Below are positions 1,773 through 48,866 of a DNA stretch of 64,000 nt, one piece after another (the first letter of the stretch is position 1; each line of letters opens with the position of its first letter). The position numbers and the translations under genes are program-made. Source of the stretch: Chiloscyllium plagiosum. Its lineage: Eukaryota. Under the pieces are notes generated by a model that saw only the letters and a list, made by a program, of their open reading frames with translations, was not told where the DNA came from and searched no databases. The stretch covers positions 4,309,603 through 4,373,602 of the forward strand of contig NC_057756.1 in NCBI RefSeq assembly GCF_004010195.1, read 5' to 3'.

Positions 1773-1799
1773 GTGAGAAGTTGGAGGCACAGAAGAAAG
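1773..1799 (+). CDS. Micro-exon type A (27 nt): (G)EKLEAQKK
   Basis: tcttttgcttcttaaaag|GTGAGAAGTTGGAGGCACAGAAGAAAG|gtaagt. Confidence 0.85.
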
Positions 1800-4059
1800 G
1801 TAAGTGCATCTGGCCTTGTGCAAGAGAAACGTTTCCACAATGAGTTTCATCTCTGTGTAACAGAGATTGGACTGATGTATTTTTTAGTGAGCATCTAAAT
1901 ATTTCAAGACATTTATAGCGTAATTGTAGTGGAATACTATGGTTCAGGATGATATCCAGAAAGAGAATTCACAGATTTAACTTCTTTACTTGGAAGAACT
2001 AACAGACAAATTGATATTTATTGGTTTTGTTTTCATGCTTTTGTTGCACAATTGTCACAATCTGAAGCTTGTCGCTTGAACATGCATTTGGTCAGTTTCA
2101 ACTGAATTTCTCAATGTAATGTTGTTGTTAAAACCGAGAAAGCTATTTCAGTGCATTGGTATCAAGAGAACTAAATAGATGCATTTTGGTTTATCATGCA
2201 GTCGAGAACCACAAATTTAACAGGCTCCAAGGCCAGAGATACACATTTAATTATTTGGAAATGTAGGTTAAGAAAAACACTTCATACTCAGCTTTCAGAG
2301 TTTTCTTTTACTCTTAACTATTTTGTGGCTGCTGGGAAATCGGTAGGGTTTAAGGCAGAAGCGCACGTTTAATGAGGATCTCATTTGTCGTTCGAAACTT
2401 CAATCTTTACAGACACCAAAGAAGGTTACTCCAGCAAGCCAGCTGTAACGTCTGATATATGTTGTTATTCTCTGTGGCAGGGATACTCTGTATTCAAGTG
2501 AAGAGCATGCCCTAGCTTCAGACTTCAGTGGTATTACCAAGCAGTCAGGTGCCCATATTGCACATAATTACATTTTCGAAGAAAAAAGGTCAAAATAAAT
2601 TCAGAAATGGAGCGTTATCCTGCACGCATCAGTGGGAAGAACGAAACATTATATTGTTCCACTTTGGAACGTATCATCAGACATGACATTAATTGAAGAC
2701 AAAATGCGAGATTTGTCCCTCTCTTCAAATGTTGCATGAATGAATGCGTATCCACAACAATTTTGTAATTATCTAATAGCACAAATGTATCACAAGGGAA
2801 CATGGTAATATAACAGAATAGGAAGTGAAAAGAATTCAATATACTTCATGTGTAATGAAAAAAACGACTCGTGAAAAGTAAATAGGGCGGATATTTGGTA
2901 AGTGTGTTTGCTTTATGATGCAAGGGAAATGCGCATTTTTGAGAAGAGAATGCACTTATGAATTCTTCAGAACTGTGGAAATAGACTTTAATTCTAATAG
3001 TAAATTCGAAGTACTGTAAAGTCAGAGGAAAGTGAACGAAGTTCCCATTTCAAAGCAGTCATTCACTGCAGTTCAAGTGTCCTGACAGGCACATTGACAG
3101 CTCTGCCTAAAAGTGGATAAGATAAGAGTGATGTTAGTCTTCCAGTGAGCTGATGTAATAGATTTGCAGGGCAATATAAACAGTTTAAATACATGTGGCA
3201 ATGGGCCAGTATATTGGCTAAGTAGAATGTCACTTGTCAAGGGTTTCCGATAGGAATACTGGGTGCGAATGGCAAGATAACTAGTGAACATAGAAGTAGA
3301 TGACACTTTAGAAGGATTCTCGTTGAAATTGGTGTCATTGTGAAAGGTCGATCCATTGTTTTATGCGTCGTGGTATTAGCCTCGCAGTTGTATTTCGCAA
3401 CTTAGGTGGAGAGACAGGTGATAGCTATTTAATTTTTCATCCGCTATGCAGGTTTCCAGCTGGGTGCAGAGCACGCTGAGAGCGGGTATGATACTGCTGG
3501 GAAGTGAACGAGTTCAGAGCCAGTTAACTATGTGAGTTAAGGAGGAGAGAAGGTGCCAACTGCTACTGTGAAAAATGAATCGGTAGTCATGCCAGAGGAA
3601 TGTAGCGCCGACTCAAAATGATTACAGCTCAGACAGTTGCCAGCTGGGCAGGCTAGAAGTCTTTTGATGTTTTGCAAAAAACGCAGGAAATAATTCCATT
3701 TTCAGAAATCGTGAACTTGTTACAACAGAGTAGCAATTATGTCGGTAGCATTCTGTTAAAAACATAAATGGTCATTTGGTTTGCTAACCACTTTTGATCT
3801 TACTTTCGATCGTGTTTACATTTTAAATTGGTATTATGTAGGGTACACTTGGTCCTTCCAACTTTTCCCTCCCTCTCTCTTTCTGTCACATTCACACACT
3901 ACAGCAGTTGTACTTTAATGTTCAATTTATTAAACCCAGAGCTACATAAATGCTAAGGATCAGTTAATACATTTCCTACGAAAATTGATAATTGCAATGG
4001 TGAAAAGTGTTTAGCATTCCAATGAATAATATTGAAGCAAACTTTACGAATTTATAAAT

Positions 4060-5390
4060 TCAACCGAAATACATTATGTTGAAGCAATTCTGAATTTTGA
4101 AACAATGATTGTATGTGGAGTAACATGAATTATTGAAAAGGCTGTTTATGTATCAAATAGAAGTGGTCAATGTAATATATTTGCATTTTCAGAAGGTGTA
4201 TGGCAGTGTACCATAGATTAAACTTGAAAATCACACTTTGTTGAAGATATTACTTTAGACTGTGTAGAAAATTGTCTAACTCATGGAAGATAAAGAGATG
4301 AGACAATAGAGACATTTTGAGAAGGGCAATATGTAACTAGTGGAATGTAAAATAGAGCAAAACTAGAGCTTGAATAATTTTCTCTACACGTTATTTTCTT
4401 GAATGTGATAACCAAATTGCAAACGCAAAAAATATGAATGGCAAAAATGAGAGCATAGGACATGGTAAGCATAAAATTGAGTTTGCAGAAACATAGAGAC
4501 AAGTTAGGTGAATGGGAAGGAAAAGAACATTTTGGCAGATGAAATGTAATGTAAGAAAATGTTAGAGTATCAATGAGGTTGTTGACTTGCCAACTGAGTT
4601 GGCACGTTTGTTCGCAAATGTTCCATCACAATTCTGTTTAACATCATCAGTGCACCTCCAGTGAAACATTGGTGTTCTATCCCGCTTGCTATTTATGTGT
4701 CTCCGTCTGCTGGGGTTCGTGGTGTCATTTTGAGTTTCTTTTTTGCCTTGCCTGTTCTTTTTCTTATTGTGATAGGATTATGCAGTTTAGCCAGATGAAG
4801 AGAAGAGTTACATATTAAGTTAGTTGGGAGTGATTGTAGAAAGCAATTGAAAATAAGTATTTGCTTGAAAGTATCACAAAAGAAAATACTATCTTTTTTG
4901 CGGGAATTAGTGAAGTCAATTGGACTGTTGATAGGGAAAGTTCGCATAATAAGAGGACGTTGAATCAGACTGACCTGTGCTAAATACAATCTAAAAGAAA
5001 GAGAGACCACCTTATGGATGACACATGATCCTTTATATGAGTTTGCAGGTAAGATGTGGAAATATTATTGCCCCTTGTCATGGGGGTTAGGACCAGAAGA
5101 GGAATAATATCAGAATATTCACTTGTCCGTTTAAGACAGAGATGCGAAACAAAAAGGTATTCAAATGAAAATGTTTTCTTGGAAATCCATTATGTCTGAC
5201 GGCAATGGATGTCGGATCAGAAATTATATCAATATTGAGATAGACAAATGTATAATCAACCAGGAAATTGAGAGTTATGGAAAAAAGTAACACTGCTTCG
5301 AAAATAAGCAACCAGTTATGATCTGATCGGCTGGTTGGCAGACATTGGCACTGATTGGTGGACGTACTGAATAGACAGAAAGCCAAACTT
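4060..5390 (+). mobile_element. Highly decayed CR1-like LINE fragments
   Basis: Remnant VNVIYLHFQK (cf. VDVIYLDFQKAF) near 4165 and CR1-like 3' region near 5100-5370. Confidence 0.55.
4578..4730 (-). mobile_element. Decayed Penelope terminal-repeat fragment with degenerate hammerhead core
   Basis: Minus strand gca-CTGATGA-tgttaaacagaattgtgat-ggaa-catttgc. Confidence 0.45.
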
Positions 5391-5649
5391 TTGGTTTTCG
5401 GTGTAATTGTATGACTGTAATGTTTTGTTTGTGTCTATCTTAATTGTGGGAGTAATCTTGACTGTGTATCATTTTGCACACGTTTTTTTTCTTGTTTTAG
5501 CGGGCGTTAATAAGGAGATATATTCCAGAGCAAGTAGTAGTGGATGTTTCAGGTTTGGGGGGACCGGAGGGAGAGACTTAAAGAATAGGTAAAAATAGAT
5601 CCCCGAGAGATAGAACAACAACTAGATGAATAATGGTCTGCTCAAAATG

Positions 5650-6130
5650 CTTTGGGAAAAGAAAACTCTGCTAATCAGGAGCATATGTAGGAGATAATGG
5701 GTTGGCTATGCAGAAAATAACACAAGTAATGACAACGTTTGAGATGTGAGTACTGGTAAAAGGGGAAGAAAGAAGGTTTAAGCCTCTAACGTCATTGTAC
5801 TCGATATTGAGTCTTGAAGACTTCGAGCTTGCCACTGGAAACTGAAATGTTTTCCTTCCAGTTGCCGCTGAGGCTCAAAGAAGCACTGCAACAGGCTGGA
5901 TACAGAAATGTTTGCCAATCAACACGGTAAAGCATTGGGGTGGCATATAACTGTAATCTCCAGGTCATTTCTGCAGACAGTAAAGAGTTGTTATACACAA
6001 GTTAGCTCAGTCCACGTTTATTATTAATATGGACAGCCGACTGCAAGAAAGATTGTAAGATGTAGATTCAGGCTAAAGCAACTGAAGATTTGTTCACTCT
6101 TCCACTTGCAATGACGATGTCTGAAGGATA
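5650..6130 (-). mobile_element. Very old Penelope-like endonuclease-region fragment
   Basis: Patchy similarity to the PLE copies at 24640-24900 and 43090-43350. Confidence 0.35.
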
Positions 6131-6211
6131 GTTGCCTTCCAAATTTACACGAAAATTCAGGATAACATATGTGACTGAAAGTGAAAATCGATGGCTATCA
6201 TATTAAAATAG

Positions 6212-6432
6212 GCAACCCACGCATACCCCTAACCTAACACTACGGGCAATTTAGCATGGCCAATTCACCTGACCTGCACATCTTTGGACTGTGGGAGGAA
6301 ACCGGAGCACCCGGAGGAAACGGTAAATTGCCCGTAGTGTTAGGTTAGGGGTATGCGTGGGTTGCGCTTCGGCGGGGCGGTGTGGACTTGTGGGGCTGAA
6401 AGGCCTGTTTCCACACTGTAAGTAATCAAATC
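6212..6432. mobile_element. HE1-type SINE with inverted 5' part
   Basis: Perfect 42-bp inverted repeat 6212-6253 / 6324-6365; same family as 18405 and 33081; CR1-like tail ggcctgtttccacactgtaagtaatc. Confidence 0.85.
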
Positions 6433-7019
6433 AGGAATGAGAAGAAGAGTAGACCAGTGAATTTGTTTTAAAAATATCTATTATCTACTCTCATCAAAAT
6501 GAGTGGTTGAATCATAGTTCCACTCTGCATTTCGTGCGATGCAGATAATAGGGAGCAGTGAGTGTGTGGAAAAAATACAATAAGGAGGTAAATTTTTAAA
6601 ATTAGTGAATGTGGATCATTAAGCTCAGTTAGATATTATTAAGAAAAGAAATAAAGGGGCTCTTTCATCCATTCATGGGTTAACGAAGTTTCAAGGTAGA
6701 TGAGTGTAGGAAATTGCAGGAGGATAAAGCACATTTCGATGAAAGATCTATGCCTTTCCTTCCAATTCTATGGAATGGGCATAGCAGAGAAAACATAACT
6801 CATCGGTTCTGATTTGAAATTATTGATCTCTTCCAGATATATAATTGGTGTGCTCACGACTTTCCCACATTTTGTTCACTCTGAAAGTGTTGATCCGCCA
6901 CTTCAGTATAGAGGGTAATTGTTAAGATGAAGTAAAAGCATGCAGTCATATATGTTTGGGGGGAATACAGAGATTGAATAAAATGTAAAAATTTAAACGA
7001 TCGTACTTCTGACTTCCAG

Positions 7020-7046
7020 ATTTCACCAAAAGCAAAGAAGAATTAG
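7020..7046 (+). CDS. Micro-exon, shortened B-like (27 nt): DFTKSKEEL
   Basis: cttctgacttccag|ATTTCACCAAAAGCAAAGAAGAATTAG|gttggc; weaker donor, but fills the B slot and aligns to ELTGCQEAL. Confidence 0.65.
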   Translation: MSPKAKKN

Positions 7047-7284
7047 GTTGGCAAATTAGTCATCGTTATTTAAATATGATGTAAAATTTCCTCGCAATAT
7101 TCCAATGATTGCACATTTTGCAATTCAGTCCTCACACTTCTATCATCTCGATGCTTGTTTTATATTAAGGAATTTGTGTGCGTCTGTGTACATACTTCTA
7201 ACAAAAGAAAACTTTAATATAGTATTTGCTTTATAATATTACTTATTTCTATATTTAACTCTCCTCAATTCGAGTACATAACAG

Positions 7285-7311
7285 CGGAAAAGCTGAATTC
7301 AAATCGCAAAG
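7285..7311 (+). CDS. Micro-exon type A (27 nt): AEKLNSNRK
   Basis: acataacag|CGGAAAAGCTGAATTCAAATCGCAAAG|gtattt. Confidence 0.8.
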
Positions 7312-7329
7312 GTATTTCTTAAGAAAGTC

Positions 7330-7600
7330 TCAGTGGCGGCATGGAGAGATGCTGATGGTTTAAACGTAATTTTACTGCACAAATAATCCAGTTTTCCTGA
7401 TTAATGATCTGGGGATAAGGCAGATGTGGAAATTAGCTTGAACTTAGAATTAGTACCTGGTTTAGATACACCATCTACAAAATGGAGCATTGTGTTCATT
7501 GTATAATTGGCTTGAAAAAAGAAACAATTTGATTCACGAATATCAAAGGACATTTGGCATGCTTCATTATACAGATGCATGTTCTGCTTGAGTCCAACAG
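7330..7600 (+). mobile_element. Decayed SINE of the second family (as at 30995)
   Basis: Similarity to 30995-31340 (ctgggga...gcagatgtggaa...gattcac). Confidence 0.4.
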
Positions 7601-8901
7601 CAGTTTTATCTGGGCCATATATATTGGTATAGTCTGTAGCACGCGTGGCAGATCCTTGGCTTTACATTACTAAAACAATGATTAATTATTTAGAAAAATA
7701 TGTGAAAACATTATGACTCGCCGCTTAGTGAAGACTAGATAATTTTGTTGGACTTTTATCACAATGCTTAAGGCAAGTTTTAAGAATTTGACAGAGACGT
7801 GGATAAGGTACAAAAATGTTCAATTAGAATGAGGAATATTCATTACAGTGTTTGATAGTAGGTAGTAAAAAAAAAACATTCCTGAGTGGAAAAGGCATTA
7901 GAGGAAATTACTTTTAACGAGGCATCATTCAAGATGAGGTTTGTCTTCTACACTAAACCAAACAAAAAGTTTCATTTCACAGGGAAATCAATGGAAATTT
8001 TGGCAGATGTAAATTATCCAGTGAAAGAAAAACAACAATTTCGTGATGGAATGATGTTTGTGAAGGCAAACAGAAGTTAGAACTGAAAATATTACCTACA
8101 ACACTCTACAGAGGAATGTCTCACCAAGGCGAAGGTGCTAGAAAAAACTGAATGGCCTGAATACATCACTTGGACCCGATGGACTAAGGGAGGTAGCTGA
8201 AGAGATAGAGAAGGTTTGAGTGGTGATCCTTCAGGAATCAGTCGAGTCAGGGATTGTCCCAGAAACTGGAAAATCGCTGTGACAACCCTGTTTAAAACGG
8301 ACGTAAGGGCAGAAGACGGGAAATGACAGACTAATTGGCTTAAACTCGTTCGTAGGTAAGATCCTGGAACCCATTGTAAAAGGTGAGATTTCTTAATATT
8401 TGGACGAGCATGGTAAAATAGGACAAAATCAACGTGGTTTTTTTTCAAAGGGAGGTCATGTCTGACAAATTTGCTAGACTTCTTTCAGGAAGTAACGAGC
8501 AGGTTTTACTAAGGAGAGCCAATAGATGTTATCTACCTGGATATTGAGAAGGACTTTGACAAGGTACTGCATAGGAGGGTATGGAGTAAGATAAGGACCC
8601 ATGTTATCACTGGCAAGGTATTAGCATGGATAGAACCTTGGCTGTCTGGTAGAAAACAGAGGGTGGTGACAAAAATGTCGGTTTCACGATGGCAGCCAGT
8701 GACAAGTGGTGTTCCAGAAGCCTTAATATTGGGAAGACAACTTCTCAATTTATATATTAACGATCTCGATGAAGGAACTGAGGGCGTTGTAGCGAAGTTA
8801 CAGACGACACAAATACAGATAGAGGGTCTGGAAGCATCGAGGAGGCGGTGAGGCTGCAGAAGAATTTGGACATGTTAGAAGTTTGGGCAAAGAAGTGACA
8901 G

Positions 8902-9079
8902 TTGAAACTTTATTGCTGGAACAGCACAGCAGGTCAGGCAGCATCCAGGGAACAGGAGATTCGACGTTTCGGGCACAGGCCGTTCTTCCTGTTCCCTGGA
9001 TGCTGCCTGACCTGCTGTGCTGTTCCAGCAATAAAGTTTCAACTTTGATCTCCAGCATCTGCAGACCTCACTTTCTCCT
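8902..9079 (+). mobile_element. Palindromic Penelope-derived mini-insert
   Basis: Perfect 57-bp inverted repeat 8901-8957 / 8987-9043; TSD caaagaagtgacag at 8888-8901 and 9080-9093; arms match the PLE termini at 24320 and 42765. Confidence 0.92.
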
Positions 9080-9761
9080 CAAAGAAGTGACAGATCAATT
9101 GCAATTTGGGAAAGTGTGCGGCATAGAGTATTTTCGAATTGGGGATGAAATTCAGCAGTCTGAAGTGCAAAGAGACTTGGGAGCTCTAGCCTAGGATTCT
9201 CTTAAGGTAAATCTGTAGTTTGAAACTTTCAGGAAGGTAACTGAAAGGAAATGAAATGACTTATATTCATGGAGCAATTGATTAAAAAGCAGGGAAGTCA
9301 TTCTGCGGATCTATAAAGCTCGAGTAAGAGTACATCTGGATCATTGGGAACAGTTTTCGGCCCAATGTATCAGAAAGGATGTTCTGGCCCTTGTGCATGT
9401 TTAGAGGAGTTTCACAAGAATGGTCCCCGGAATGAAAAGCTTACCGTAAGAGGAATATTTGAGGCCTGTGGGCTTCTACATGATTCAAATTAGAAGGATG
9501 AGGGCGACCTAATTTAAACGTACAGAATACAAAATGGGCACAGTGAATGCTGGTATGATGCTTCCATTGATAGGATAGACTGGGACCCGAGGGCATAGGC
9601 TTAGAAAAAGAAGACCTTTCTTATCTAGTCATAACTTCTGTATCCAGACAGTGTTGAATCGATGAAATTCATTACCATAGATGGCTTGGAGGCCAGTTCA
9701 ATATTTAAGACTGAGACAGGTTCTTGAGTATCAATGGAATCAAGCATTATGGGGAGAAAGT

Positions 9762-9910
9762 GTGGTTTTTGGAAAAGCACAGAATCCGAGGAGCAGGAGA
9801 GTCGACATTTCGAGCATAAGCTCTCCACCAGCTCTTCATCATTATGGTCAGCTGAGCTTTTCCAATACCAATTCTGATCTCTGGCATCTGCAGTCTTCAC
9901 TTATTCCTCC
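9762..9910 (+). mobile_element. Older, partly deleted palindromic Penelope-derived mini-insert
   Basis: ggaaaagcacag...gaggagcaggagagtcgacatttcg then gcttttcca...gatctctggcatctgcagtcttcact. Confidence 0.7.
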
Positions 9911-10415
9911 GTGAGAAACATAGCAGCCATGATTGAATTGAGCAACAGAGTCCGTGGGTTGAATGGAATAATATCTGCTCCTATTTCTGATGATCGCAAA
10001 GTATCTCCTAAATGTCTTTAGAAACACATGCGTTATTGACAATTGAAGAATTCCCAGGGCCCATGAAATCACATTTGGTGAAATCAAATGGCTCTTTGAA
10101 GGATATGCAAGAAGGGAATAATTCTTGTGATTATAAAAGAGACCCTGATTAGGAAATTATTGACAATCTTTTATTATGTATTTTCCATTGTGAGGATTAC
10201 AAGCACAGTAAGGAAGTAGGGTAATTGAAACGAACAGTCTGTCGTGACCACAGGGTTATTATATCAAATGCAAGTACATCAGGTATTAAGATGCCTTCTC
10301 CTCTATCTGTCTGAAACTGCATTTTTTTCTAAATAAATAACAGTTTTACTTCCGTAGAGATGGGAAACGATCAATGCACCATAAAGATTTGTTTATTGCT
10401 CTTTCATCCTCTTAG

Positions 10416-10451
10416 AACTAAAAGACATGCAACAAACTTTAAAAGATTTGG
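10416..10451 (+). CDS. Micro-exon type B (36 nt): ELKDMQQTLKDL
   Basis: ctctttcatcctcttag|AACTAAAAGACATGCAACAAACTTTAAAAGATTTGG|gtgaga. Confidence 0.88.
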
Positions 10452-10689
10452 GTGAGAGTGATATTTTGCACGTATTTGAAAACAAATTGCGACGTGAAGA
10501 TAACGATAGATTTCCATTGTGACAGTAAACATCATGCATAATCAATGATCAATTATACATCCTGCGCAGTTTTGTTGATTAATAAATGCAGACATTTTGC
10601 CCCATAACTAGTTTCTCGGGCAGTTTTAAAGAACGTAACGTTACATTACTTTATTATGTTCAGCGCTAATGATTAATAGTTGATCAAGT

Positions 10690-11576
10690 AATGACATAAA
10701 GAACGGCTTGTAAGAAGGCCGTTCAGCACAACTTGCCTATATACCGAGTTTTCACAATTAAGTTAACACCATTTGCGTGAGTTTTGTCGATATTTTTCAT
10801 GCATATCCCAGCCCTGTAGTGTTTAAATATTTCCTAAGTGATGAGGTTGTTCTTGCTTTCACCCATTCCTCTGCCAGTCTGGTTCGTACACTCACTAAAC
10901 TCTGACTTAAAAAAAAAGTCCCATTCAGCTTTAACCTGTGCCCTCTAGATTTAAAGTTGCTTCAAAGGGAAAAACATTTTTTTTGCCATTTTACCTACCC
11001 GTACTTCTCCTGATTACATACACCTCCATAAGATCACCTTTATAGTTACCAATCGTTCTGGAAAAAAGAAGAAATCTGGCCCGTCTAACCTCTCTTTTTA
11101 ACACAAAAATGCAAGTCCAAATAGTATCCAAGTAAGTCTTTTCTGAGCTTCTTTTTTATAGTTTAATAATATCCTTTGCATAGTACGGCGATCAGAAAGG
11201 CATACAGTTATCCAAACGTGGCTTCACCAACGTCTTGTCCAGCTGAAATAAGACGTCCCTACTACGTTACTCAATTATCTGAACAATGAAAGTAAGCATT
11301 CCGAAATGTTTCCTCATCACCCTGTCTACTTGTGACTCCACTTTCAATGAGCTATGAACATGTACCCCGAGAACGCTTTGAACAGAAAATCTCCCCAATG
11401 CTACTCCAATGCCAGGGTGAATCCTGCCCTGGATTGACATATTAAAATGTAACACCATCAATTATCGAAATTAATGTCCATCTGCCGTTCTTCAGCCCAT
11501 TAGCCCAGCTTCTGAAAATGCCATTCCATTCCCAGGCTGTCTTCTTCACTCTCCACAATAGCAGCAATCTTGGTTT
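10690..11576 (-). mobile_element. CR1 LINE 3' part (left piece; continues at 18262)
   Basis: LGVHVHSSLKVESQVDRVMRK in ORF 11267-11461; joins 18262 across the LTR element. Confidence 0.85.
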
Positions 11577-17512: not shown

Positions 17513-17515
17513 AAC

Positions 17516-38282: not shown

Positions 38283-38803
38283 GTTTGGGAACTGTTTCAA
38301 TTATTTTAAAATAACCAGTGACCGAAGTATTTCATTGTTCGTTGTTCTATCTTGAAATGAAAAGAGCTTCGCAGTATGCAGAACTATTGTTCTGAATTAT
38401 TCTAAAATCAATAATATTGGAAAGTATAATTACGCAATAAGAGAAGGGATGAACTGATTTACACATCTGTTTAAAATGGCTGTTCAAAAAGTACATAATA
38501 CTTGCTAATTTTTTAGTTCGATTCAGTTCAGAATGTCAATTACATTACACAGATTTGGCGCCAGTTAGATTACCCTGCAACATATAACTATGCTTTCTTG
38601 TTAAAACGTTTTATTACATGTGGCACAGAATGACACAGACGAATCCCGATTACACTTGGCAAAAGATATTTTATATTTCATTAAAATGGGAACACTTTTC
38701 AGGCGAGTGGTGTCCTGTCCAACTCTATGATAGGTAATACTTATCATGGGATCCTGTTTTCATTAGTTCATCAATATTGCTTCTACTTGTTTTCGATTAA
38801 CAG

Positions 38804-38830
38804 GAGACACTCTTAAAGGGAAAGAGAAAG
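38804..38830 (+). CDS. Micro-exon type A (27 nt): GDTLKGKEK
   Basis: cttgttttcgattaacag|GAGACACTCTTAAAGGGAAAGAGAAAG|gtatct. Confidence 0.85.
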
Positions 38831-40974
38831 GTATCTTCATTTACACGTCATTGTTTTACAGTCTTTTGCATTTCATACTGAAGTGAAATATCCAATATAT
38901 GATGCAAAGCTCCAAAGAAGTGTAGTAACCTTGCGCAGGAAAAATAAAAATCTAATATTAATTCAGACTTCGTTAAGAGCCTACAATATTTTCAATTGAT
39001 TACGTTCAATTCTTTTATTTGAGTTCGGAGCTCAATTTTGACAAACTACAGGTTTTTGGTGATAGGGTCCACGTGATATTAAACGCAACGTTGTTTTCTG
39101 TAGCTGGAAAGATTATTTACTTATTTTGGAAGATAATTTATGAATTTTGCAACGTTAACCCTTGGGATTACAAAGGTGAAGTTCACGAAGCCCTTCTGAA
39201 AATTAGCGTTGCTCTGTTATTAGCAAGAAATGACTAGTGGTGGTTGAAAGCAAGGATCAGCACACCTCAGGCGAGGGGAGATTTCGATAAGGATCACGTT
39301 AATTGCAGCCAGTGTAGTAATCCAGTCAACATAATTGGGCACAGTTTGTGTCACAAGCTAGCCATGCAACAAACTGATTTAAGATGAGCCCTAGGAATAT
39401 AGCATCTGAGAACTATTCTCATAAGAAAACACGGATGGAGCATACACGATGATATATTTACATCGTAAATGCAACACTATTACCTTCATCCTATCCACCT
39501 CCAATTCTCCCCACCACGCACACACACATATACACACACACAAACACCATGCATGCACACGCGAGCCATCCATTGTTTCACCAGGAAAAGCTGCTTAGGT
39601 ATCTAGATTATGAGGTTGAATATTTTTCTGAACTGATTCTGAATTAGAATAGTCTTATGCACTTACATATTGTACATACAGATTATGTATTTTATTTGAC
39701 TGGGATCGACGCGGGAATTTGGAACACTAAGGCAATCAAAATAGTCCCTTAGCATGTGAGGAAGCCGGTTTGTCGAATACCTCAAGCATAATCTTATTTA
39801 AATCGGATGTGTCGGATTATGGTCCAATAGGTTTATTTGAAATCATAATCTGTTGCAGCATTGATCCTTCATCAGGTCACTGCACGAAATTTGAGTTCTG
39901 ATTCGTTCTGCTCCATGTAACTGTCTTAACGTTTTCATCAAATTCTGTTTATAATCTATTTGTAACCAATAATAGGCGAGTCCTGATTCAAATATCGTTC
40001 ATCGAAATGCCAAGGACATATTCTCATGAACAAACTTTGTTCTTCTTATTCAATGTCCCATGTCGTTATAGTACGTCCTTGATGAGGCCTGCGCCATTTC
40101 CAAGTACGATATACTCTACTCTATCTCTTGGAAGTGATGTTCCCCCCTGTCAAATTTTATAAGCTATTTTTCAGCAAGGAATACAGGTTATCTACCGAGA
40201 TACCAGGATGTCTGACAGCCCGAATCTGACATAGATCAGTCACAGCTGATTATTAGGTCAATTTATGATGGCGATTTTTTTTATTAGTATGTACGAGTGA
40301 TGCATGCAGATAATAGAGAAAGCAGGATGTCAAAATATTCCTTGATAACACTGCAGGCATGTTATGTCCTGTCCACACGAATGGCAATCCTTGTGACCAT
40401 TGGATTTGCATTGGCTTGATTCCTGATTACTTGGAGTTATCAATGGCCTTTTGGAGCGGGGGAAAAGAAATCTGCAATGCTACAAAATTGAATAATAGTC
40501 CTTTACTTCAGGAGAAAAAGAAAAACAGTTACATGATACAATCAGATGCATTTAGTCACCCTATATATAGTTTTATTTTGCTGGAAGGAACACTCTGGTC
40601 TTAAAATCAGTTCCATGACTTGCTAAAAATTGTGTTCACCAAAAGACTGAAAATACTTGGCTCTACTTGGAGAAACATGCACTTTTATTATTTTAATCGA
40701 TAAAACTGAAACAGAGCATTTTGGTTATTTTTCGTGATGTTGGTGTCTTTTTAATTCCATCAACTAATTTAATTACGTTATGAAAATCATTGCAAAAACT
40801 ACAATGACATGTGTTTAAAGTGATTTTACCAAACTTGAATCTCACAAATTATTTAACAAGCAGTTCAGCACAAAATAAGTTTGAGGTCTATATTAATGTA
40901 GACAGTTGTCCAATAAATATCGATTTAAATCTCACAAGGAGGGTCAAACCGTCGATTTTACCTTTTATTTTCTC

Positions 40975-42330
40975 ATAGGATGTGTGGCAGCACTGACGGG
41001 GCTTGCATGTTTGAACATAACAAGTAGCCTATGCCAGCGTGGTATGGAGATGCTGGACAGAACAATTATAATATTTTTGGTCGGAGGAGGAGAAACATGA
41101 ATAGCCAATACGGAGAGATTTCCAGGAATTTGAGCAAATAACACTCAAGGAGCACTGTTGTATTTGAAGGCAGAAGGAATATTGGCTTGGATTGTAACTG
41201 GCAGAATGTGATTTTTTTTTCATTGGTCTATTGTCTTTATTCTTTCAGATAGTAGTTGTCACGAGTCTGGAAGGTGTTGACTCAGAAGCATTGATAACCG
41301 CTGAACTGTATTTTTAGATGACATCCAGCGCTGCCGCCTAAAGCTGGTGTTGCAGGGAGTCAATGTTTGTGTATGTGGTGTCATTCAAGCGGGCTGCTTC
41401 GTTCTGGATTATGGCCAGTTTATTTGGTGCTGCACTCATTCAGGCAAGAGGAGCGCATTCCATTCGTCCCCTGACTCTGTCTTGTCGATTGTGGTCATTC
41501 CCTTGTTGATTTTGGATATTAGTTCATTGCTGCCAATGTCTTAGCTTCGGATCTTTCCTTGTAGCCACAATTTTCACACGGCCCGCCAATTTTTGCTTCT
41601 GATCAAGTTTTAAACCCAGCATGTTAATCTGATGGTTATGCCACTGTATGTTGAAACACAAAGATCAAACTCTTTTTTTTAGAGCCTGTTAATGACTTTT
41701 GCATGTGTGGCGTGAATGTTGCTTGCTACTTGTCACTTCAGGGTTAGATATTGTTCAGTCCTTCCTGCATTTAGATATCTCTGAAGTAGAAATCTACAGA
41801 TGAACATTATATAAATGTCTGCGAACATCGACCCTTCTGACATTCTGATGTGGGGAAGGTCATTAAGGAAACAGCGGAACACGATTATGGCTCTCCCACT
41901 CATTTGAGTAACTCAAAAATAAAGTTGAAAAATCAATCACAAACCTCTTCTTTTCCATCAGGTATGATTGTAACAAAACGTTTTTTTTAGTAGATACCAA
42001 TTGACTTCTATTTTTTTCTGGGATTCCATGATGTCATACTCAATCAATTTCAGTCTTGACTTCAAGGGCGGTCACTTTCGCCTCATACCTGGAATTGACT
42101 GACTTTATAAGGCTTGCAACATGGTTTTGATACAGTCAGCATTTCATTGGCCCTGGTTGAGCCCAAATGTGAAATCAAAAGTTGGTTTTAACTAAGAATT
42201 GACGTTCATGGTATTAATAATGATAGTTTGCACCTTTGGCTGATGATAGAAATGAGACTAATGGGGAAGAAGTTGGAGATTTTGATTTAACTTGACATCA
42301 AACTATGTGGCCATCTGTCATAATTTTCGG
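40975..42330 (-). mobile_element. Old LINE (CR1/L2-group) 3' part and RT region
   Basis: ggatgtgtggcagcactg...atttccaggaatttgag...tcaagcgggctgcttcgttctggat...gcactcattcaggcaag; recognised from memory as a common shark LINE. Confidence 0.6.
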
Positions 42331-42394
42331 TTTGATGCGAATCATCTGTGTGAAAGCAACTTGTCTAATGTGACTTGATTTGAATTACTATTGT

Positions 42395-42748
42395 CACATA
42401 TAGTACTATTTTCACATTCAGTGAAAAAAGCCCTATTTTGCATGCCTTTCAGGCAAACCATACTATACATAATTAAATCACGGTAGTAGACCAGAATGCA
42501 AAATATAGTATTACAACTGCAGAGAAGTTGCAGTGAAAGGAGAACTCGAATACATGCGAAATCAATAGATAAGCCAGAAAAAAAAACAGAAAATAAGCTG
42601 ATTTTGAACATTTTCTTATGTGCTTTCAAAGTTTTGCATCTTCTTCCCGACAAAAAAGGATGGTAGATAGTGTAATTGCGTTCAGAGGGACATTTGCTTA
42701 TGTTTGCTATTATTCCCAAGGTAACGGGATGTCTCGATGGAGTAAATG
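42395..42748 (-). mobile_element. Rex1/Babar-like LINE 3' end (left piece)
   Basis: HPFLSGRRCKTLKAHKKMFKISLF in ORF 42342-42782; homologous to 26420-26640. Confidence 0.75.
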
Positions 42749-44860
42749 AAATAAAGTTGAAAGCGTGTTGTTGGAAACGCACAGCAGGTCAAGCAGTATC
42801 TGATGAGCAGGAAAATCGACGTTTTGGGCCAGAACCCGTCATCTGGAATGCGACTGGGAGCCTTGGGGGTGGAGCCATAAACGGCAGGGGTGTGGGGCTG
42901 GGGAGAAGGTGCTTGAGAGTGCAATAGGTAGATGGAGGTGGGGTAAAGGTGATAGGTCGAAGAGGATGGTGGAGCAGATTGGTGGGAAGGACGATTGACA
43001 GGTGGGATGGGTCATGTGGGTAGTGGTGAGATGGCCGGTTAGAACTGGTGTAAGCTGTGGGGATGAGAAATGAGGAAACTGGTGAAGTCCACATTGATGC
43101 CCTGGAGTTGAATGATCCCGAGGTGGAAGATAAGGCTATCTTCCTCCTGCGTTGGGTGGTGAGGGAGTGGCGATGGAGGAGGCCCAGGACCTGCATGTCC
43201 TCGACAGAATGGGAGGGGAACTTTGAATATTCGGCCACGGGTGGTGGGGTTGATTGGTGCGGGTGTACCGCAGATGTTCCCTAACGTGCTCTGTGAGAAG
43301 GCATCCAGTCTCCCCAATGTAGAGGAGAGCGCATCGGGAGCAACAGATACAATAAATGTCATGCGTGGAAGTGCAGGTGAAATTTGGATGGACATGGAAG
43401 GCTCTTCTTGGGCGTTGGATAGAGGTAAGTGGGAGAAGCATGGGTACAGGTTTTGCAATTCCTACGGTGGCAAGGTATGGTGCTGGGTGGAGGGTGGCCA
43501 GTTATGAGGTGTGGGCTGGACCAGATAGATGCAGAGGGAACGGTATTTGCGGAAAGTGAATAGGGGTGGGGAATGAAATATATCCCTGGTGATGGGTCCA
43601 TTTATAGTTGTTGAAATGTCGGCTGGTGATGTGATAAATGCAGAGGTTGATGGGGTGGAATTTGAGGACGGGGTGTTCTGTCCTTGTTGCGTTTGGAAGG
43701 GTCAGGCTCGAGTGCTGAGGTGCAGGACGTGAATGTGATGCTTTGGAGGGCGTCTTCAAACACATGGTAGGAGAAATTTCGTTCTTTAAAGAAGGAGGCC
43801 ATCTGGTGAGTTCTGTGATGGATCTGGATCTTCTGTCAGCAGATGCGGTGGAGACAGAGGACTTGAGAGTACATGTATAGCATTTTTGCAGGAGGTAGGG
43901 AAGGAGGAGGTGTAATCCAGGTAGCCGTGGGAGTCAGTACGTTTGTACGGAATGTCAGTGTTGAGTTGGTCCTCATGGATGGAGATGAAAATGTCTAGGA
44001 AGGGCACGGTGCTGTCAGAGGTGGTCGAGGTGAATATAAGGTCGGGGTGGAATGTGTTGGCCAAGTTGATGAACTGTTTGACTTCCTCGTGGGAGCACGA
44101 GGTCGCGCCGATGCAGTCAGCAACGTAGTGGAGGAAAAGATGGGAAGTGGTACCGGTGTAACTCCAGAGTATTGACCATTCTACAGAGCCGACAAAGAGG
44201 CAGGCATAGCTGGGGCCCATGCGGACGCCCATGGCTACGCCTTTTGACTGGAGGAAGAAGGAGGATTGGAAGGAGAAATTGTTGAGGGTGAGGACTAGTT
44301 CAGCCAAACAAATAAGTGTGTCAGTGGAAGGGAACTGGTGGGGGCATCGACAGAGGAATATACGGAGGTTATTGGAGTCCCATTCATGGTGGATGGAGGT
44401 GCACAGGGAGGTTGAAAGTTGTGGAGGAGGTGGACAGCGTCGTGGTGTCCCAACTGTATGTGGGGACCTCCGGGTCCGGAGGGGTGATAGGACAGTATCG
44501 AGATAGGTGGAGATGAGTTCGGTGGGGCTGTAGCAGGCTAAGACAATAGGTCAGCTGAGGTAGTCAGGCTTGTGGAATCTGTGTAGGAGGTAGGATTGGG
44601 TGGTGTGGGGTTGCCAAACTATGAGGTTGGAAGCTGTGGATGGGAGATCCCCTGAGGTGATTAGTTATGTATGGTCTGTGAGATGATGGTTTAGTGAGGG
44701 ACGGTGAGGTCATGGTCGGCGGGGGTGTAAGAGGAGGTGCCTTTGAGTTGGTGCCTGTGTTTAGTGTTGTACTGGTCACTCCACCAAACTACCGCTGCAT
44801 CCCCTTTGTCCACTGGTTTGATGGTGAGGTTGGAATTGGAGCAGAGGAAGTGGAGGGCTT
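42749..44860 (-). mobile_element. Penelope-like element (RT, Cys-rich linker, GIY-YIG), decayed, inserted in Rex1
   Basis: RT LVLTLNNFSF..KGVAMG..GPSYACLF..YVAD(C)..PFLDI (43786-44307); CHRRNCKTC linker; YCICCSRCALLYIGETG..EH (43136-43441); degenerate hammerhead ~42813-42850. Confidence 0.93.
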
Positions 44861-45095
44861 TGGAAGTCTGATTTTCGTGATGGACTGGGCTGTGCTCACA
44901 ATCATCTGCCTCTTGGGCGGACAGTTGTCATACCGCATAGTGATGCATCCATATAGAATGCTACCTATGCAGCGTTTCTGAAAATTGGTAAGAGTATTAT
45001 GGACATGCTGAATCTGTTTAGCCTTATCACGATTTGAACGTGTTGGTGTGCTCTCTTGACTTTCATATCAATGTGTGTGGACCAGGCCAGATCAT
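44861..45095 (-). mobile_element. Rex1/Babar-like LINE (right piece)
   Basis: gtgatggactgggctgtgctcac...cagttgtcatacc...gtgatgcatcc...gtggaccagg continues the sequence broken at ~42748. Confidence 0.7.
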
Positions 45096-45099
45096 AACT

Positions 45100-46880
45100 T
45101 TCCAACCATAGACTTGGACTGGTATAGTATGAAAAACTATTATGGATAGGAATGTGTTAAGTCTGTAAAATATATTTTTTTAAATTCCATATGTGGATGT
45201 ACCTACTAGAGAAGGGACAAATCTTCAACACCTCATTGGAAATAAAACAGGGCAAGTGTCTGAGGTGCCAGAGGAGGAACACTTTGGGGTCAATAACAAT
45301 AACTAGATTGTTGTTTATATTGAAAAAGTGAAATGGTAAAGGATAAACCTGAATTAAAAGTTAAGGTTTAACTTTGCAGTCATGATTAATTTTAAAGCTA
45401 TTAAGCAGGAATGTTCAAGTATTGATTCAGAGAGGCTTATGCATAAGGCAATGAATGTAAAGTGGGAGGATTTCAAAAAAGATATAAGGCGAGTTCGGAG
45501 AAAGTGTTAATGTGAAGAATGAGACGAGGAGGTGTAGGGAATACTAAATGACTGGAGATATTGAGGCACTGGTCAGGAAAAACAAAACAGCATATATCTG
45601 GTTTAGAGAGATGGGACCGATTGAATAACCAAAATTCCATATGTGGATGTACCTACTAGAGAAGGGACAAATCTTCAACACCTCATTGGAAATAAAACAG
45701 GGCAAGTGTCTGAGGTGCCAGAGGAGGAACACTTTGGGGTCAATAACAATAACTAGATTGGTGTTTATATTGAAAAAGTGAAATGGTAAAGGATAAACCT
45801 GATTTAAAAGTTAAGGTTTAACTTTGCAGTCATGATTAATTTTAAAGCTATTAAGCAGCAATGTTCAAGTGTTGATTCAGAGAGGCTCTGGTGCATAAGG
45901 CGATGATTGTAAAGTGGGAGGATTTCAAAAAAGATATAAGGCGAGTTCGGAGAAAGTGTTAATGTGAAGAATGAGACGAGCAGGTGTAGGGAATGCTAAA
46001 TGACTGGAGATATTGAGGCACTGGTCACGAAAAACAAAACAGCATATATCTGGTGTAGAGAGATGGGACCGATTGAATAACAAGAGCAGTATAACGCCTG
46101 TAAGTATATACTATATCGGAAATCAGGAGAGCAGACTGCATGCAAGAGATTTTTTTGACAAATAATTGCCTAAGAAAAATCCAGACAGATTCTACAAATT
46201 CTTGAAGTGCAAAGGAGAAACTGGGGGGGAGAATACATCAACAAGTCCATCTGTGGGTTGAGATACAGGCGATGGGTGACATACAAAAGGGTACTTTGCG
46301 TCAATAATTAATGTGGAGTAGGGCATGGAAGCGAGAGAACTTGAGGTAACAAATAATATTTTCTTCAAAAGTGTCCGCATTAGAGACGAGGAGGGGCTGC
46401 ATCATGAAACGCACAAAAGCGAATAAATGCATGGGAAATTATCAGATGTATCTAAGAACTTATGGGAAGCAAGGGACGAGCTGTGCTCATTGATGAGCTG
46501 TGTGTAATGTCGAAAGATATGGTTGAGGTTCTGAAAGACTGGAGAGTTGGTTACGCATGCAAAAAAAGCCAGGCAACGATAAATTGGTGGAAATGTCGTC
46601 AGCGGTGCGTACATTATTCGCGGGGGTTCTGAGGGACCGGATATGCATGCAATTGAATAACTGTTTAGGGATATCCAAACAGCTTCCTTTTACGTGGTAA
46701 ATCGTGTCTTATTAATGGAACTGAGTGTTTTGAAGAAGTTACAAAAACATTTCATGAAGGAAGATGGGAAGACATTGTTTACATGGACTTCAGGAAGACA
46801 TTCAATGAAGATCTGCGTGGTAGATTGCCATGTCAGATAACATGGAATCCCAAGATTCATGTGTTTATTATATCCGAGCA
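45100..46880 (+). mobile_element. Old CR1 ORF2 fragment (endonuclease-to-RT region)
   Basis: YVDVPTREGTNL.. remnant; gaagactggagagttggt; VYMDFRKTFN near 46780. Confidence 0.8.
45182..46081. repeat. ~450-bp direct tandem duplication
   Basis: 45182-45629 is repeated at 45632-46081 with few substitutions. Confidence 0.95.
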
Positions 46881-46904
46881 TTTGATACAACGGAATGCCT
46901 TGTT

Positions 46905-47165
46905 ACGCCCTTTCAGAGGGCATTTTAGATTCCACTAAATGGCTGTAGTTCTGGAGCCAGATATAGCACAGACTAAGTAAGAATGGTTCTATCTTACCAT
47001 GAATGACTTTCATTAGACAACATGTTTACAACAATCTGCAATTGTTTCATGATCATCGTTGGGTTGTTAATTTTAGGTTACTTTTTGTATTCAAATTCCA
47101 CAAAATGCGATATTGAATCCCGAATATTGCCTTGTTATCTGGATTGCAAGTTTCACTCTATATAT
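46905..47165 (-). mobile_element. Decayed SINE of the second family
   Basis: Reverse-complement similarity to 30995-31270 (ctggagccagatatag; ttcaaattccac). Confidence 0.55.
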
Positions 47166-47576
47166 TAATTACGAAAGAATCATAAAATAAATCCACGATA
47201 ATAATTGCTTTCTTAATATGTGGATTACAGAAGACGTTTACTTGCACCATAGCTGTAGGACCGTACAACATGCTTGCGTTTGAAATATTATCATTATCTG
47301 AACCTACAATGTGCTTAAAGGAACTTGAAACCGGAACGAATGAAGAAAATTCTATGTAATAAGCTTGAAAATGATACGTTAAGAAGAGTGTGAAAAGCTA
47401 GTCAGTCTCGTCACCACTAACATATTCCTATTATGCTAAATAATCATTTTCTTCTTTGAATTTCTGCGTGGTTTGTGCTTGGGTGCATGTGCATGCATGA
47501 GGACATAAACACTGCAAGTCATTAAATATCACATATTAATGTACAGCTGATAATTTCACACACCTTTGCATTACAG

Positions 47577-47612
47577 AACTAGCTGCTTGTGAAAAATCTT
47601 TGGAAGATTTTG
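47577..47612 (+). CDS. Micro-exon type B (36 nt): ELAACEKSLEDF
   Basis: cacctttgcattacag|AACTAGCTGCTTGTGAAAAATCTTTGGAAGATTTTG|gtgaga. Confidence 0.9.
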
Positions 47613-47877
47613 GTGAGAGAAGTAACAAATATTTCAAAAGTCTTTCAATGAGATTTAGTCAATTGTTCTAACCTATGTTTAAACAAGAGTAAGACTGGAG
47701 GGCTTTCCGACGACAATGATTGAAAATTTGACTTCCATCCTATTTGATGAATTCTGCATTGATCATAGATCAAAACGCAGACAGCAAGGTGATCAACCCA
47801 ATTCCAAATGGCAGCATCTCTGAACGATCTAAAGTCATACTTCCTGGGTTTTTCTATATCAGTATGTCCACTTACAG

Positions 47878-48255
47878 TGTTAGAATCATAGAGATGTACA
47901 GCACGGAAATGTAATCTGTGGTTCAGTCGGCCATGCCGACATGACATCACAAATTAACTTAATCAAATTTCCCAGCATTTGGCCCATATATCTCTGAGCC
48001 CTTCCTAGTCTTCTGCCGATCCAGATGCCTGCTGAATTTTATAAATTTACCAACCTACATCACTTCCTCTGGCAGCTCATTCCACATCCGCCAACCGTCT
48101 GCGTGAAATGATTTCCAAATAGGTGTCCTACAAATACCTCCCCCTCACCTTAAATCTATGCCCTCCAGTTCAGAACTCCCCAACCCCAAAAGAAAATCCT
48201 TGACTATTTACCCTATACATGCCTCTCATGATTTTATAAACCTGTATAAGGTCTT
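47878..48255 (-). mobile_element. CR1 3' end
   Basis: tagaatcatagagatgtacagcacggaaa...atgattttataaacctgtataaggtc. Confidence 0.88.
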
Positions 48256-48464
48256 AAATTTATAAGTGATACTTCTACTAAAAACAGTGCATAATCATAT
48301 CTACAGTGTAATATAACATGAGGTGATAAGACAGAACAGAAACAAAACACCGTCACTATTTCAACTCTTCAGTGAGTTATTTCAAATTTGGATATCCTGT
48401 TATCATTTCTCATTTGAATTAAAACATTTAGTATTCGTTATTTCAACACAAATTACACAAGTTG

Positions 48465-48730
48465 AAACGTCATATTGTGGCTGCACAGGACATTGGGTTG
48501 GGTCACTTTTGGAGCGTTGTGTGCAATTCTAGTCTCCCTCCTATCAGTAGAATATTGTGAAATTTGAAAGGGTTAAGAAAAGATTTCCAAAAAGTGTTGT
48601 GAGGTTTGGAGGATGTGAGTAGCAGGGCGACGCAGAATAAGTTGGGACTGTTTTCGCTGGAGCATTAGAGGTTGAAGGGTGACCTTATAGAGGTTCACGA
48701 AATCATGGGATGTACAGATAAGGTAAGTAG
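48465..48730 (+). mobile_element. CR1 fragment
   Basis: ggacattggg..ttggagcgttgtgtgcaattct..gaggttgaagggtgaccttatagaggt. Confidence 0.85.
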
Positions 48731-48839
48731 ACAAAGTATGCTCCATGTCCAACATCCAGTGAATAATGCTTCCAATAAGAGAATTAATTTTTGCAATAAA
48801 ACGCTGTTGGCTCATATGTATAAATCTCGTTTATTGCAG

Positions 48840-48866
48840 AAAAAAAATTGAAAGCAAAAGAAAAAG
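48840..48866 (+). CDS. Micro-exon type A (27 nt): EKKLKAKEK
   Basis: tctcgtttattgcag|AAAAAAAATTGAAAGCAAAAGAAAAAG|gtaaat. Confidence 0.88.

Follow-up and report, generated by a model that had tools for sequence, protein, structure and literature searches.

A candidate giant micro-exon gene for a three-heptad coiled coil in a shark, and its possible kinship with butyrophilin and BG tails

Introduction

The locus considered here raises the question of whether a series of very short, widely spaced open segments in shark DNA are the exons of a single gene and, if so, what kind of protein that gene would encode. The DNA is a stretch of 64,000 nucleotides from Chiloscyllium plagiosum (positions 4,309,603 to 4,373,602 of NC_057756.1, a contig called C47 below), and the whole of this stretch is referred to as the window. 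An initial annotation had proposed a gene of 13 exons, 396 nt in total over 47 kb, in which exons of 27 nt (type A) and 36 nt (type B) alternate and encode a regular coiled coil.

Micro-exons in the window

A scan for segments of 27 or 36 nt that are preceded by AG, followed by GT, open in phase 1 and end in G recovered seven type-A and five type-B micro-exons, that is, 12 exons with 369 nt (Table 1). All of them lie on the + strand, are phase 1/1 and have splice signals of realistic appearance. Thus, the exon form first described (AG before, G|GT after, phase 1/1, open) holds for the 12 exons found again, and the two ends of the proposed set, 1773 and 48866, are exact. The thirteenth exon is doubtful: the sole further candidate that fits the rule (7020-7046) would supply the 27 nt still missing from 396 nt, but its donor is weak and it agrees with neither consensus.

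By alignment, the consensus is xEKLxxKxK for type A and ELxxCxxxLKDL for type B. The exons follow one another in the order A A B A B A B A B A B A, and by computation only 6 of the 792 possible orderings of seven A and five B exons are equally regular. The alternation claimed at the outset is strict in the core, but it is broken at 1773/7285, between which a B exon was looked for and not found, and again after 48840. Introns in the window range from 0.4 to 9 kb.

Table 1. Features of the putative gene, in window coordinates
Feature	Position	Strand	Details
Whole window, interior of putative gene	1..64000	+	Inter-exon DNA: putative intron with transposon debris
Type A micro-exon, 27 nt, phase 1/1	1773..1799	+	EKLEAQKK; donor gtaagt; 31.3 bits
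Doubtful 27-nt candidate	7020..7046	+	FTKSKEEL; weak donor gttggc; 17.8 bits; neither consensus
Type A micro-exon, 27 nt	7285..7311	+	EKLNSNRK; acceptor weaker; <16 bits
Type B micro-exon, 36 nt	10416..10451	+	(E)LKDMQQTLKDL; donor gtgaga; 30.7 bits
Type A micro-exon, 27 nt	19539..19565	+	EKLNTKKK; 29.3 bits
Type B micro-exon, 36 nt	22557..22592	+	(E)LLNSEQSREDL; second core Leu replaced by Arg; 17.2 bits
Type A micro-exon, 27 nt	28159..28185	+	EKLQDKEK; 32.3 bits
Type B micro-exon, 36 nt	36060..36095	+	(E)LTGCQEALKNL; 29.0 bits
Type A micro-exon, 27 nt	37774..37800	+	GKLKAKTK; 26.8 bits
Type B micro-exon, 36 nt	38247..38282	+	(E)LMKCEEDLEDI; 29.8 bits
Type A micro-exon, 27 nt	38804..38830	+	DTLKGKEK; 25.5 bits
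Type B micro-exon, 36 nt	47577..47612	+	(E)LAACEKSLEDF; 22.8 bits
Type A micro-exon, 27 nt	48840..48866	+	KKLKAKEK; 36.1 bits
SPRY (B30.2) exon	about 268058-268381 (C47:4577660-4577983)	+	Pfam SPRY, E 1.1e-14, 177-aa open frame

Evidence for coding exons

Regular expressions for the two exon types, which were fitted post hoc to the exons, match seven A and five B sites on the + strand of the window and none of either type on the - strand, as compared with 0.015 and 0.12 matches per sequence by chance in 200 second-order Markov simulations. Splice features that lie outside these expressions were compared with those at AG or GGT sites drawn at random from the window. The pyrimidine tract value is 0.65 at the exons against a background of 0.46 (reached in 0 of 20,000 samples), the AG-free zone is 26 nt long against 13 nt (p=0.004), and donor matches to RAGT number 2.4 against 1.4 (p=5e-5).

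A further line of evidence comes from the codons themselves. Entropy is lowest at codon position 2 and highest at position 3 in both A exons (0.88 and 1.48) and B exons (0.76 and 1.48), and the conserved leucine of the A exons, present in 17 of 20 exons, is written with six different codons. Exon conservation acts at the amino-acid level. When modules are aligned with each other, the exon alone aligns and the 400-nt intron flanks fail to do so, except in two recent duplicates. In one of these, differences amount to 4 of 36 positions in the exon and 15 of 120 in the intron, so that the exon is kept no better than its surroundings, and three of the four exon differences alter a residue. Judging from these features of the DNA, the micro-exons are very probably real coding exons.

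The spliced product of the 11 exons from 7285 to 48866 has 114 residues, with no stop codon and no proline. Leucine occupies 15 of the 16 positions of one heptad register, and the register three residues later cycles through K/N, C/M/S and L/I/F. The power at a period of 3.5 residues is 3.03, against 0.16 in shuffled sequences (0 of 5,000 reach the observed value), and the heptad pattern reported earlier is thereby confirmed. Both marks of an alpha-helical coiled coil, heptad periodicity and a lack of helix breakers, extend over all 114 residues. Cysteine is found in 7 of the 11 type-B exons of the alignment. Provided that the exons are indeed coding, a coiled coil is predicted with great confidence. 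In effect, splice features, strand bias, heptad register and codon pattern agree with the original view of the set as coding exons of a coiled-coil rod.

Extent of the array and related arrays

A model built from acceptor, donor and residue make-up, and free to choose any exon length from 15 to 120 nt, was applied to 364 kb that include the window and both its flanks. At 20 bits or more, it returned 43 candidates on the + strand and none on the - strand. The non-overlapping best exons number 33, of which 19 have 27 nt and 14 have 36 nt, with no other size; when the threshold is lowered to 18 bits, 39 of the 47 candidates have one of these two lengths and one has 24 nt. The array reaches from -125536 to 206397 in window coordinates, although several of the exons in the flanks are degenerate. 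Thus, the supposed unit of 13 exons in 47 kb forms part of a longer array, which comprises at least 33 exons and extends for at least 332 kb.

Nor does this array stand alone. C47 carries further arrays at 0.53-0.96 Mb on the + strand and at 1.45-1.85 Mb on the - strand, and scattered matches to the micro-exon patterns occur on another contig, C37. Genome-wide, three such patterns place 11 of 13, 26 of 54 and 6 of 14 matches on C47, which makes up 0.3% of the genome, and reversed-pattern controls gave 6, 23 and 6 matches, respectively. The matches on C47 form three strand-consistent blocks. Therefore, these arrays point to a multigene family of giant genes rather than to the lone gene initially supposed. 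The suggestion that the array grew by local duplication has been upheld by two examples: one pair of copies, with 87% identity over 814 bp, contains the B exons at -7879 and -1403, and a second pair, that of the A exons at 110402 and 135189, shows 99.9% identity over 827 bp.

A downstream SPRY exon and other domains

An exon for a SPRY (B30.2) domain lies on the same strand, 61.7 kb downstream of the last detected micro-exon. C47 has no other SPRY match among the matches listed (150 scored of 293 candidates), and, given 293 candidates in a genome of 3.56 Gb, one would fall in a given 100-kb interval of one strand with a probability of about 0.004. The link between this exon and the array is one of position, the DNA analysed ending 54 kb before the SPRY exon. 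From this position, it appears somewhat probable that the B30.2 domain belongs to the same gene as the micro-exons. Among the matches listed, no PRY was found on C47 (150 scored of 292), and neither SPRY nor PRY accompanies the other two arrays of this contig.

Other domains were sought in open frames with thresholds of 62-85 aa, which short exons, including those of lectins, would escape. Within these limits, the + strand frames of the 364 kb contain no Ig, transmembrane-linked, RING, B-box, lectin (Lectin_C) or other globular domain; in the 150 kb upstream, no V-set was found in + strand open frames and no RING or B-box in open frames. The only V-set match on C47 among those listed (150 scored of 1319) is at 10.2 Mb, 5.6 Mb away. 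The butyrophilin-type Ig-C domain (C2-set_3, PF22705) is absent from C47, with all 96 candidates scored and 41 matched, and canonical-looking exons for this domain and for SPRY cluster instead on C37. Thus, of the domain exons that the initial annotation had proposed to look for in the flanks, a B30.2 exon is present downstream, while Ig, transmembrane and lectin exons were not found at thresholds of 62-85 aa.

A proposed explanation

The same-strand SPRY exon downstream points to a tail of the butyrophilin/BG type. The likeness to butyrophilins and BG genes suggested at first has gained weight from this exon about 62 kb downstream, but not from any butyrophilin-type Ig-C domain on C47. The window would be the middle of a giant + strand gene, which spans at least 332 kb and, with the SPRY exon included, about 394 kb. 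Its exons, presumably spliced in order, would encode a long alpha-helical coiled coil whose repeating unit has 21 residues (three heptads) and is split over one 27-nt and one 36-nt exon, with leucine at core position 'a' and K/N/Q, C/M/S and L/I/F in turn at 'd'. The SPRY exon may be the last coding exon, and Ig and transmembrane parts may form the N-terminus. Most likely, the rod would form the tail of a protein of the butyrophilin/BG-superfamily type, and a B30.2 (PRY-SPRY) ligand-binding domain would stand at the end of this protein. The chances of a giant micro-exon gene with such a tail and end are put at about even, and its product being a butyrophilin/BG-like membrane protein is a plausible but tentative step further.

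All exons are phase 1/1 and end in G; therefore, any number of them can be joined or skipped with the frame intact, and the length of the rod might be tuned through the skipping of these symmetric exons. The array probably grew as single exons or exon pairs were duplicated in tandem, and the gene has paralogous arrays on C47. In a more speculative reading, the giant genes would each span several hundred kilobases, and their arrays would together take up more than 1.2 Mb of a single chromosome-scale contig, with dozens, perhaps about a hundred, copies of the 27+36-nt pair and rods of many hundreds of residues. If this is true, the family would be a natural system for studying length variation through exon duplication and skipping. 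Furthermore, exons of 27-36 nt that lie kilobases apart in repeat-rich introns are easily missed or mis-joined by automated annotation and short-read alignment, and the locus is therefore a useful test case for shark annotation.

Alternative explanations

The same exons might instead belong to a real giant coiled-coil gene unrelated to B30.2 proteins, the SPRY exon being that of a neighbouring gene. Such a rod could be a cytoskeletal, extracellular-matrix or receptor-stalk protein; for instance, the neck of a type II lectin, with the core cysteines in interchain disulfides. The exon-level evidence is equally compatible with this explanation, the other two arrays of C47 have no SPRY or PRY among the matches listed, the contig holds no Ig-C exon, and the recurrent cysteine of type-B exons (7 of 11) would suit an oxidising compartment. 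Nevertheless, chance alone would seldom place a same-strand SPRY exon as near as 62 kb (about 0.004), phase-1 heptad micro-exons are a hallmark of the butyrophilin/BG group, and the 364 kb showed neither a lectin nor any other C-terminal domain at thresholds of 62-85 aa. We regard an unrelated gene as unlikely, although not negligible.

Much less probable is a TRIM-like protein (RING, B-box, coiled coil and B30.2) in which the coiled coil has undergone a huge expansion as a series of micro-exons. The SPRY exon downstream of the array, the very large B30.2 family of this genome (293 SPRY candidates) and the combination of coiled coil and B30.2 in TRIM proteins would agree with it. However, TRIM coiled coils have about 100 residues, encoded by a small number of ordinary exons, and are not known to be built from heptad micro-exons, and no RING or B-box was found in the open frames of the 150 kb upstream. 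Finally, the array might be no working gene but a decayed or never-expressed series of exon-like blocks, or a chance pattern. This would fit the absence of expected B exons at two places, the intron-like rate of change in a recent exon duplicate and the degeneration of several flank exons. By contrast, it leaves unexplained the strand bias of 43 to 0, the splice features independent of the search pattern, the recurrence of the same peptides in paralogous arrays megabases away and the preservation of frame and phase in every exon; the codon-position pattern and the synonymous leucine codons also speak for protein-level constraint. A non-working array is very improbable.

Comparison with known systems

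In gene architecture, a likeness is found in elastin and non-fibrillar collagen genes, where many short phase 1/1 exons with a final G follow one another; exons of 27 and 36 nt are among them, and in elastin two exon types alternate. The likeness ends there, as their products are rich in Gly, Pro and Ala, whereas the shark product is rich in K, E and L and has no proline. The stalk of CD23 (FCER2) shares with the array a 21-residue heptad-based repeat on separate exons. Nevertheless, in CD23 the repeats are few and each is encoded by a single 63-nt exon, with a C-type lectin domain after the stalk; no lectin exon was seen at the array, though short exons could escape the scan. In the literature consulted, no description of a 27+36 exon pair was found.

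The butyrophilin/BG-type reading rests on closer parallels. Butyrophilins and ERMAP-type proteins (IgV, with or without IgC, a transmembrane segment, heptads and B30.2) have heptad micro-exons followed by a same-strand B30.2 exon, as here. The array has the short phase-1 heptad exons that in butyrophilins separate the transmembrane region from B30.2, but in far greater number and in sizes of 27 and 36 nt: dozens of repeats, against the 'few' given for butyrophilins. It also differs from them in that Ig-C exons of their type are on C37 and not on C47. In cartilaginous fishes, butyrophilins are reported to vary in how many heptad repeats they have (PMC12841164).

The other parallel is with BG. 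Chicken BG genes are compact and have no B30.2 domain, in contrast to an array of at least 332 kb with a SPRY exon downstream, and the single IgV plus transmembrane exon that marks BG was not found at the array. Their exons have 21 (sometimes 24) nt and encode one heptad each, so that a BG-type tail of many such exons is not what the shark array shows, with its unit of 63 nt split 27+36. What the two share is a long run of tiny split-codon heptad exons for a presumed coiled-coil tail (13-36 exons per gene) and a tandem multigene family that expands and contracts (PMC4046983; PMC8813856). The three strand-consistent blocks on C47 and the matches on C37 correspond to this second trait.

The array may thus carry to an extreme what butyrophilins show as a short run of heptad micro-exons and chicken BG genes as a long one. 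More speculatively, these sharks could possess a family of giant genes, with the 27+36 pair multiplied and a B30.2 end, that stands between bird BG, whose tail is long and lacks B30.2, and butyrophilins, whose tail is short and has it, or is ancestral to them. Such tails are known from butyrophilins, with few repeats, and from bird BG, with 13-36 exons of 21 nt, the long form being described from birds. Both belong to the B7/butyrophilin-B30.2 world, to which the shark would add a 21-residue, two-exon unit at a far larger scale, perhaps still joined to B30.2. If true, a cartilaginous-fish family with another repeat unit would mean that long modular coiled-coil tails are either old or have arisen twice.

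Micro-exons of the window and their predicted product

The window was scanned mechanically for AG-[27 or 36 nt]-GT blocks that are open in phase 1 and have G as their last base, which recovered 12 micro-exons, seven of type A (27 nt) and five of type B (36 nt). Along the window they read A A B A B A B A B A B A; by our own arithmetic, 6 of the 792 orders of seven A and five B exons are this regular. The initial annotation had described 13 exons totalling 396 nt between 1773 and 48866. The rescan begins and ends with the same exons and returns 12 of that count, but an eighth 27-nt exon would be needed to complete it, and the sole extra block found under the rule, 7020-7046, fits neither consensus. 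In the exon alignments the type A consensus is xEKLxxKxK and that of type B is ELxxCxxxLKDL.

When the exons from 7285 to 48866 are joined by script, the predicted product has 114 residues, with 0 stops and 0 Pro, and is richest in K (26), E (22) and L (19). Leu occupies 15 of the 16 turns of one heptad register, and the register three residues further on runs through K/N, C/M/S and L/I/F, in agreement with the core cycle initially proposed. The period-3.5 signal is 3.03, compared with 0.16 in the shuffled product. Judged from sequence, the exons very probably encode a long coiled coil of 21-residue units, each split over an exon pair. Their symmetric phase would leave the array free to grow by duplication, and it could also allow the length of the rod to vary by splicing.

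Coordinates of the micro-exons and of other features (window coordinates unless a contig is named)
Feature	Position	Strand	Basis or detail
Type A micro-exons, 27 nt	starts 1773, 7285, 19539, 28159, 37774, 38804, 48840	+	splice/phase scan
Type B micro-exons, 36 nt	starts 10416, 22557, 36060, 38247, 47577	+	splice/phase scan
Looser-A block	C47:0.53-0.96 Mb	+	9 matches
Looser-A block	C47:1.445-1.846 Mb	-	7 matches
Looser-A block (window's own locus)	C47:3.97-4.44 Mb	+	10 matches
Reverse transcriptase, then RNase H	56442-57368	+	E 1.6e-20 and 2e-13
CT-rich satellite, unit roughly 55 bp, at least 6.4 kb	L017:3389-9814 (~127.4-133.8 kb)		open in 3 + frames
Ig-C with SPRY, example	C37:18936315 (Ig-C), 18957438 (SPRY)	+, +

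Tests against chance

The regular expression for A and B exons was fitted post hoc to the exons found. In the window it gives 7+5 matches, every one of them on the + strand, compared with 0.015 and 0.12 matches per sequence for the two types in 200 second-order Markov simulations. Three features lie outside the fitted expression. The pyrimidine tract at exon acceptors scores 0.65 versus 0.46 at random AG sites, a value reached by 0 of 20,000 samples; the AG-free zone before the exons measures 26 nt versus 13 nt in the background (p=0.004); and donor positions +3 to +6 show 2.4 matches to RAGT versus 1.4 (p=5e-5).

Codon variability, compared over 20 A and 15 B exons, is lowest at position 2 and highest at position 3, and the conserved Leu of the A exon is written with six different codons among 17 of 20 exons. 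As the exons were partly chosen by residue make-up, this evidence is supportive rather than independent.

Extent of the array

The A and B exon types carry on into both flanks, which were examined over 150 kb upstream (negative coordinates) and 150 kb downstream (above 64000) of the window. An exon model that combines acceptor, donor and residue make-up, with length left free between 15 and 120 nt, returned 43 candidates of at least 20 bits on the + strand of these 364 kb and none on the - strand, a contrast that is partly built in because training used + strand matches. The restriction to two lengths, by contrast, was not built into the model: the 33 best non-overlapping exons comprise 19 of 27 nt, 14 of 36 nt and none of any other length. 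They span -125536 to 206397, about 332 kb, and the array is thus much larger than at first described. The alternation of A and B exons is strict in the core, as had been claimed, but is broken outside it: a B exon was looked for and not found between 1773 and 7285, nor between 48866 and 68405, an interval that also holds an assembly gap.

Between modules, alignment is limited to the exon, and the 400-nt flanks do not align, with two exceptions. One is a duplicated segment with 87% identity across 814 bp, which contains the B exons at -7879 and -1403. The other is a pair of A exons 25 kb apart, at 110402 and 135189 (in the downstream flanking pieces L015 and L018), whose flanks are 99.9% identical over 827 bp; N gaps of 5.2 and 2.0 kb lie between them, and the pair may have arisen by duplication very recently or be an artefact of the assembly.

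Paralogous arrays in the genome

Degenerate A-exon and B-exon patterns were searched genome-wide, with the reversed pattern as control. The first broad A pattern performed at chance level over the whole genome (146 matches, 213 in the control), and the matches listed for it end short of C47. A stricter version gave 13 matches, 11 of them on C47 (NC_057756.1, the contig of the window), with 6 in the control, and a looser one gave 54, with 26 on C47 and 23 in the control. The looser matches on C47 form three blocks, each strand-consistent. Five more lie on contig C37, all on the - strand and four of them at 20.06-22.32 Mb; four on small contigs repeat the exon at -16980, and the remaining 19 are scattered singles at about the control rate. 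The B pattern gave 14 matches genome-wide (control 6), of which six fall on C47: four at 0.674-0.759 Mb and two, as expected, at the window locus. In the 0.73-Mb block of C47, A, B and A matches succeed one another within 3.4 kb, and the matched strings spell the window's peptides with different codons. The micro-exon arrays are therefore a gene family.

The unplaced contigs C41018, C57012 (two copies 147 nt apart) and C95580 carry exact copies of the -16980 A exon, and such small contigs are probably haplotigs or collapsed duplicates.

Repeats and rejected candidates

The window occupies C47:4309603-4373602 on the + strand and has a G+C content of 39%, in a genome of 3.56 Gb. In its 89 open frames of at least 85 aa on both strands, Pfam matches are limited to RVT_1 and RT_RNaseH debris and three sub-threshold matches at chance level. 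The retroelement fragment is intronic, on the same strand as the gene. Three-frame open stretches in the downstream piece L017 were rejected as coding, being CT-rich satellite, which lies within the gene and adjoins assembly gaps. A promoter-like, CpG-rich patch at about -136 kb (L026:3700-4800, window ~-136.3 to -135.2 kb) proved to be a Penelope-type element carrying a GIY-YIG motif. Similarly, a 122-aa open frame in another flanking piece (L008:4215-4580; C47:4233817-4234182), which weakly matches the calcium-activated potassium channel beta subunit in Pfam, was dismissed as part of a hugely abundant repeat: the genome yields 159,038 first-look candidates for it, and copies are 40-63% identical and contain stops.

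The protein to which the rod belongs

Pfam scans of + strand open frames over 364 kb (89, 109, 94, 133 and 73 frames) found no domains beyond transposon parts and sub-threshold noise; short exons would escape these scans because their thresholds were 62-85 aa. In a SPRY profile search of the whole genome, the only C47 match among the 150 of 293 candidates scored is C47:4577660-4577983 (+, E 1.1e-14). It lies in a 177-aa open frame without stops, 61.7 kb past the last detected micro-exon. The initial annotation had offered butyrophilins and BG genes as a lead; this same-strand exon speaks for it, but a complete scoring of the 96 BTN-type Ig-C candidates gave no match on C47. PRY gave no C47 match among 150 of 292 scored, and the scored lists hold no SPRY or PRY match at the other two C47 arrays. 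The one C47 match to V-set, among 150 of 1319 scored, is 5.6 Mb away and uninformative.

Among scored candidates, most SPRY, PRY and Ig-C matches sit on C37, which thus probably holds the canonical butyrophilin/TRIM-type cluster of the genome. At about 9.0-9.5, 17-19 and 24-34.4 Mb, C37 carries a very large B30.2 (PRY-SPRY) cluster together with butyrophilin-type Ig-C exons.

The position of the SPRY exon makes a butyrophilin/BG-superfamily-type tail ending in B30.2 the best-supported context for the array. By our own arithmetic, a SPRY exon would fall on the matching strand of any one 100-kb interval with a chance of about 0.004, and from the position of the exon we lean slightly towards a B30.2 linked to the array's gene. 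A rival reading is that the array belongs to an unrelated coiled-coil gene and the SPRY exon to a neighbouring one. The same position points only tentatively to a BTN/BG-like membrane protein, and a TRIM-like protein, which would share the SPRY exon, is a further rival. The array might also be dead. Within the 87% duplicate, conservation of the exon does not exceed that of its introns (differences 4/36 versus 15/120) and three of the four exon changes alter a residue, with too few sites to weigh; nevertheless, the open, coiled-coil-like product and the splice-site features make it highly likely that these are real coding exons.

Comparison with known systems

No account of a 27+36-nt heptad exon module, or of one similar to it, turned up in a full-text literature search. 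The nearest parallels come from two papers (PMC4046983; PMC8813856), in which chicken BG genes start with signal, IgV and transmembrane exons, behind which 13-36 exons, each of 21 nt or sometimes 24, make up a presumed coiled-coil tail, while butyrophilins have a few heptad repeats and then B30.2. In a further source, the number of heptad repeats in butyrophilins is described as variable across jawed vertebrates, cartilaginous fishes included (PMC12841164).
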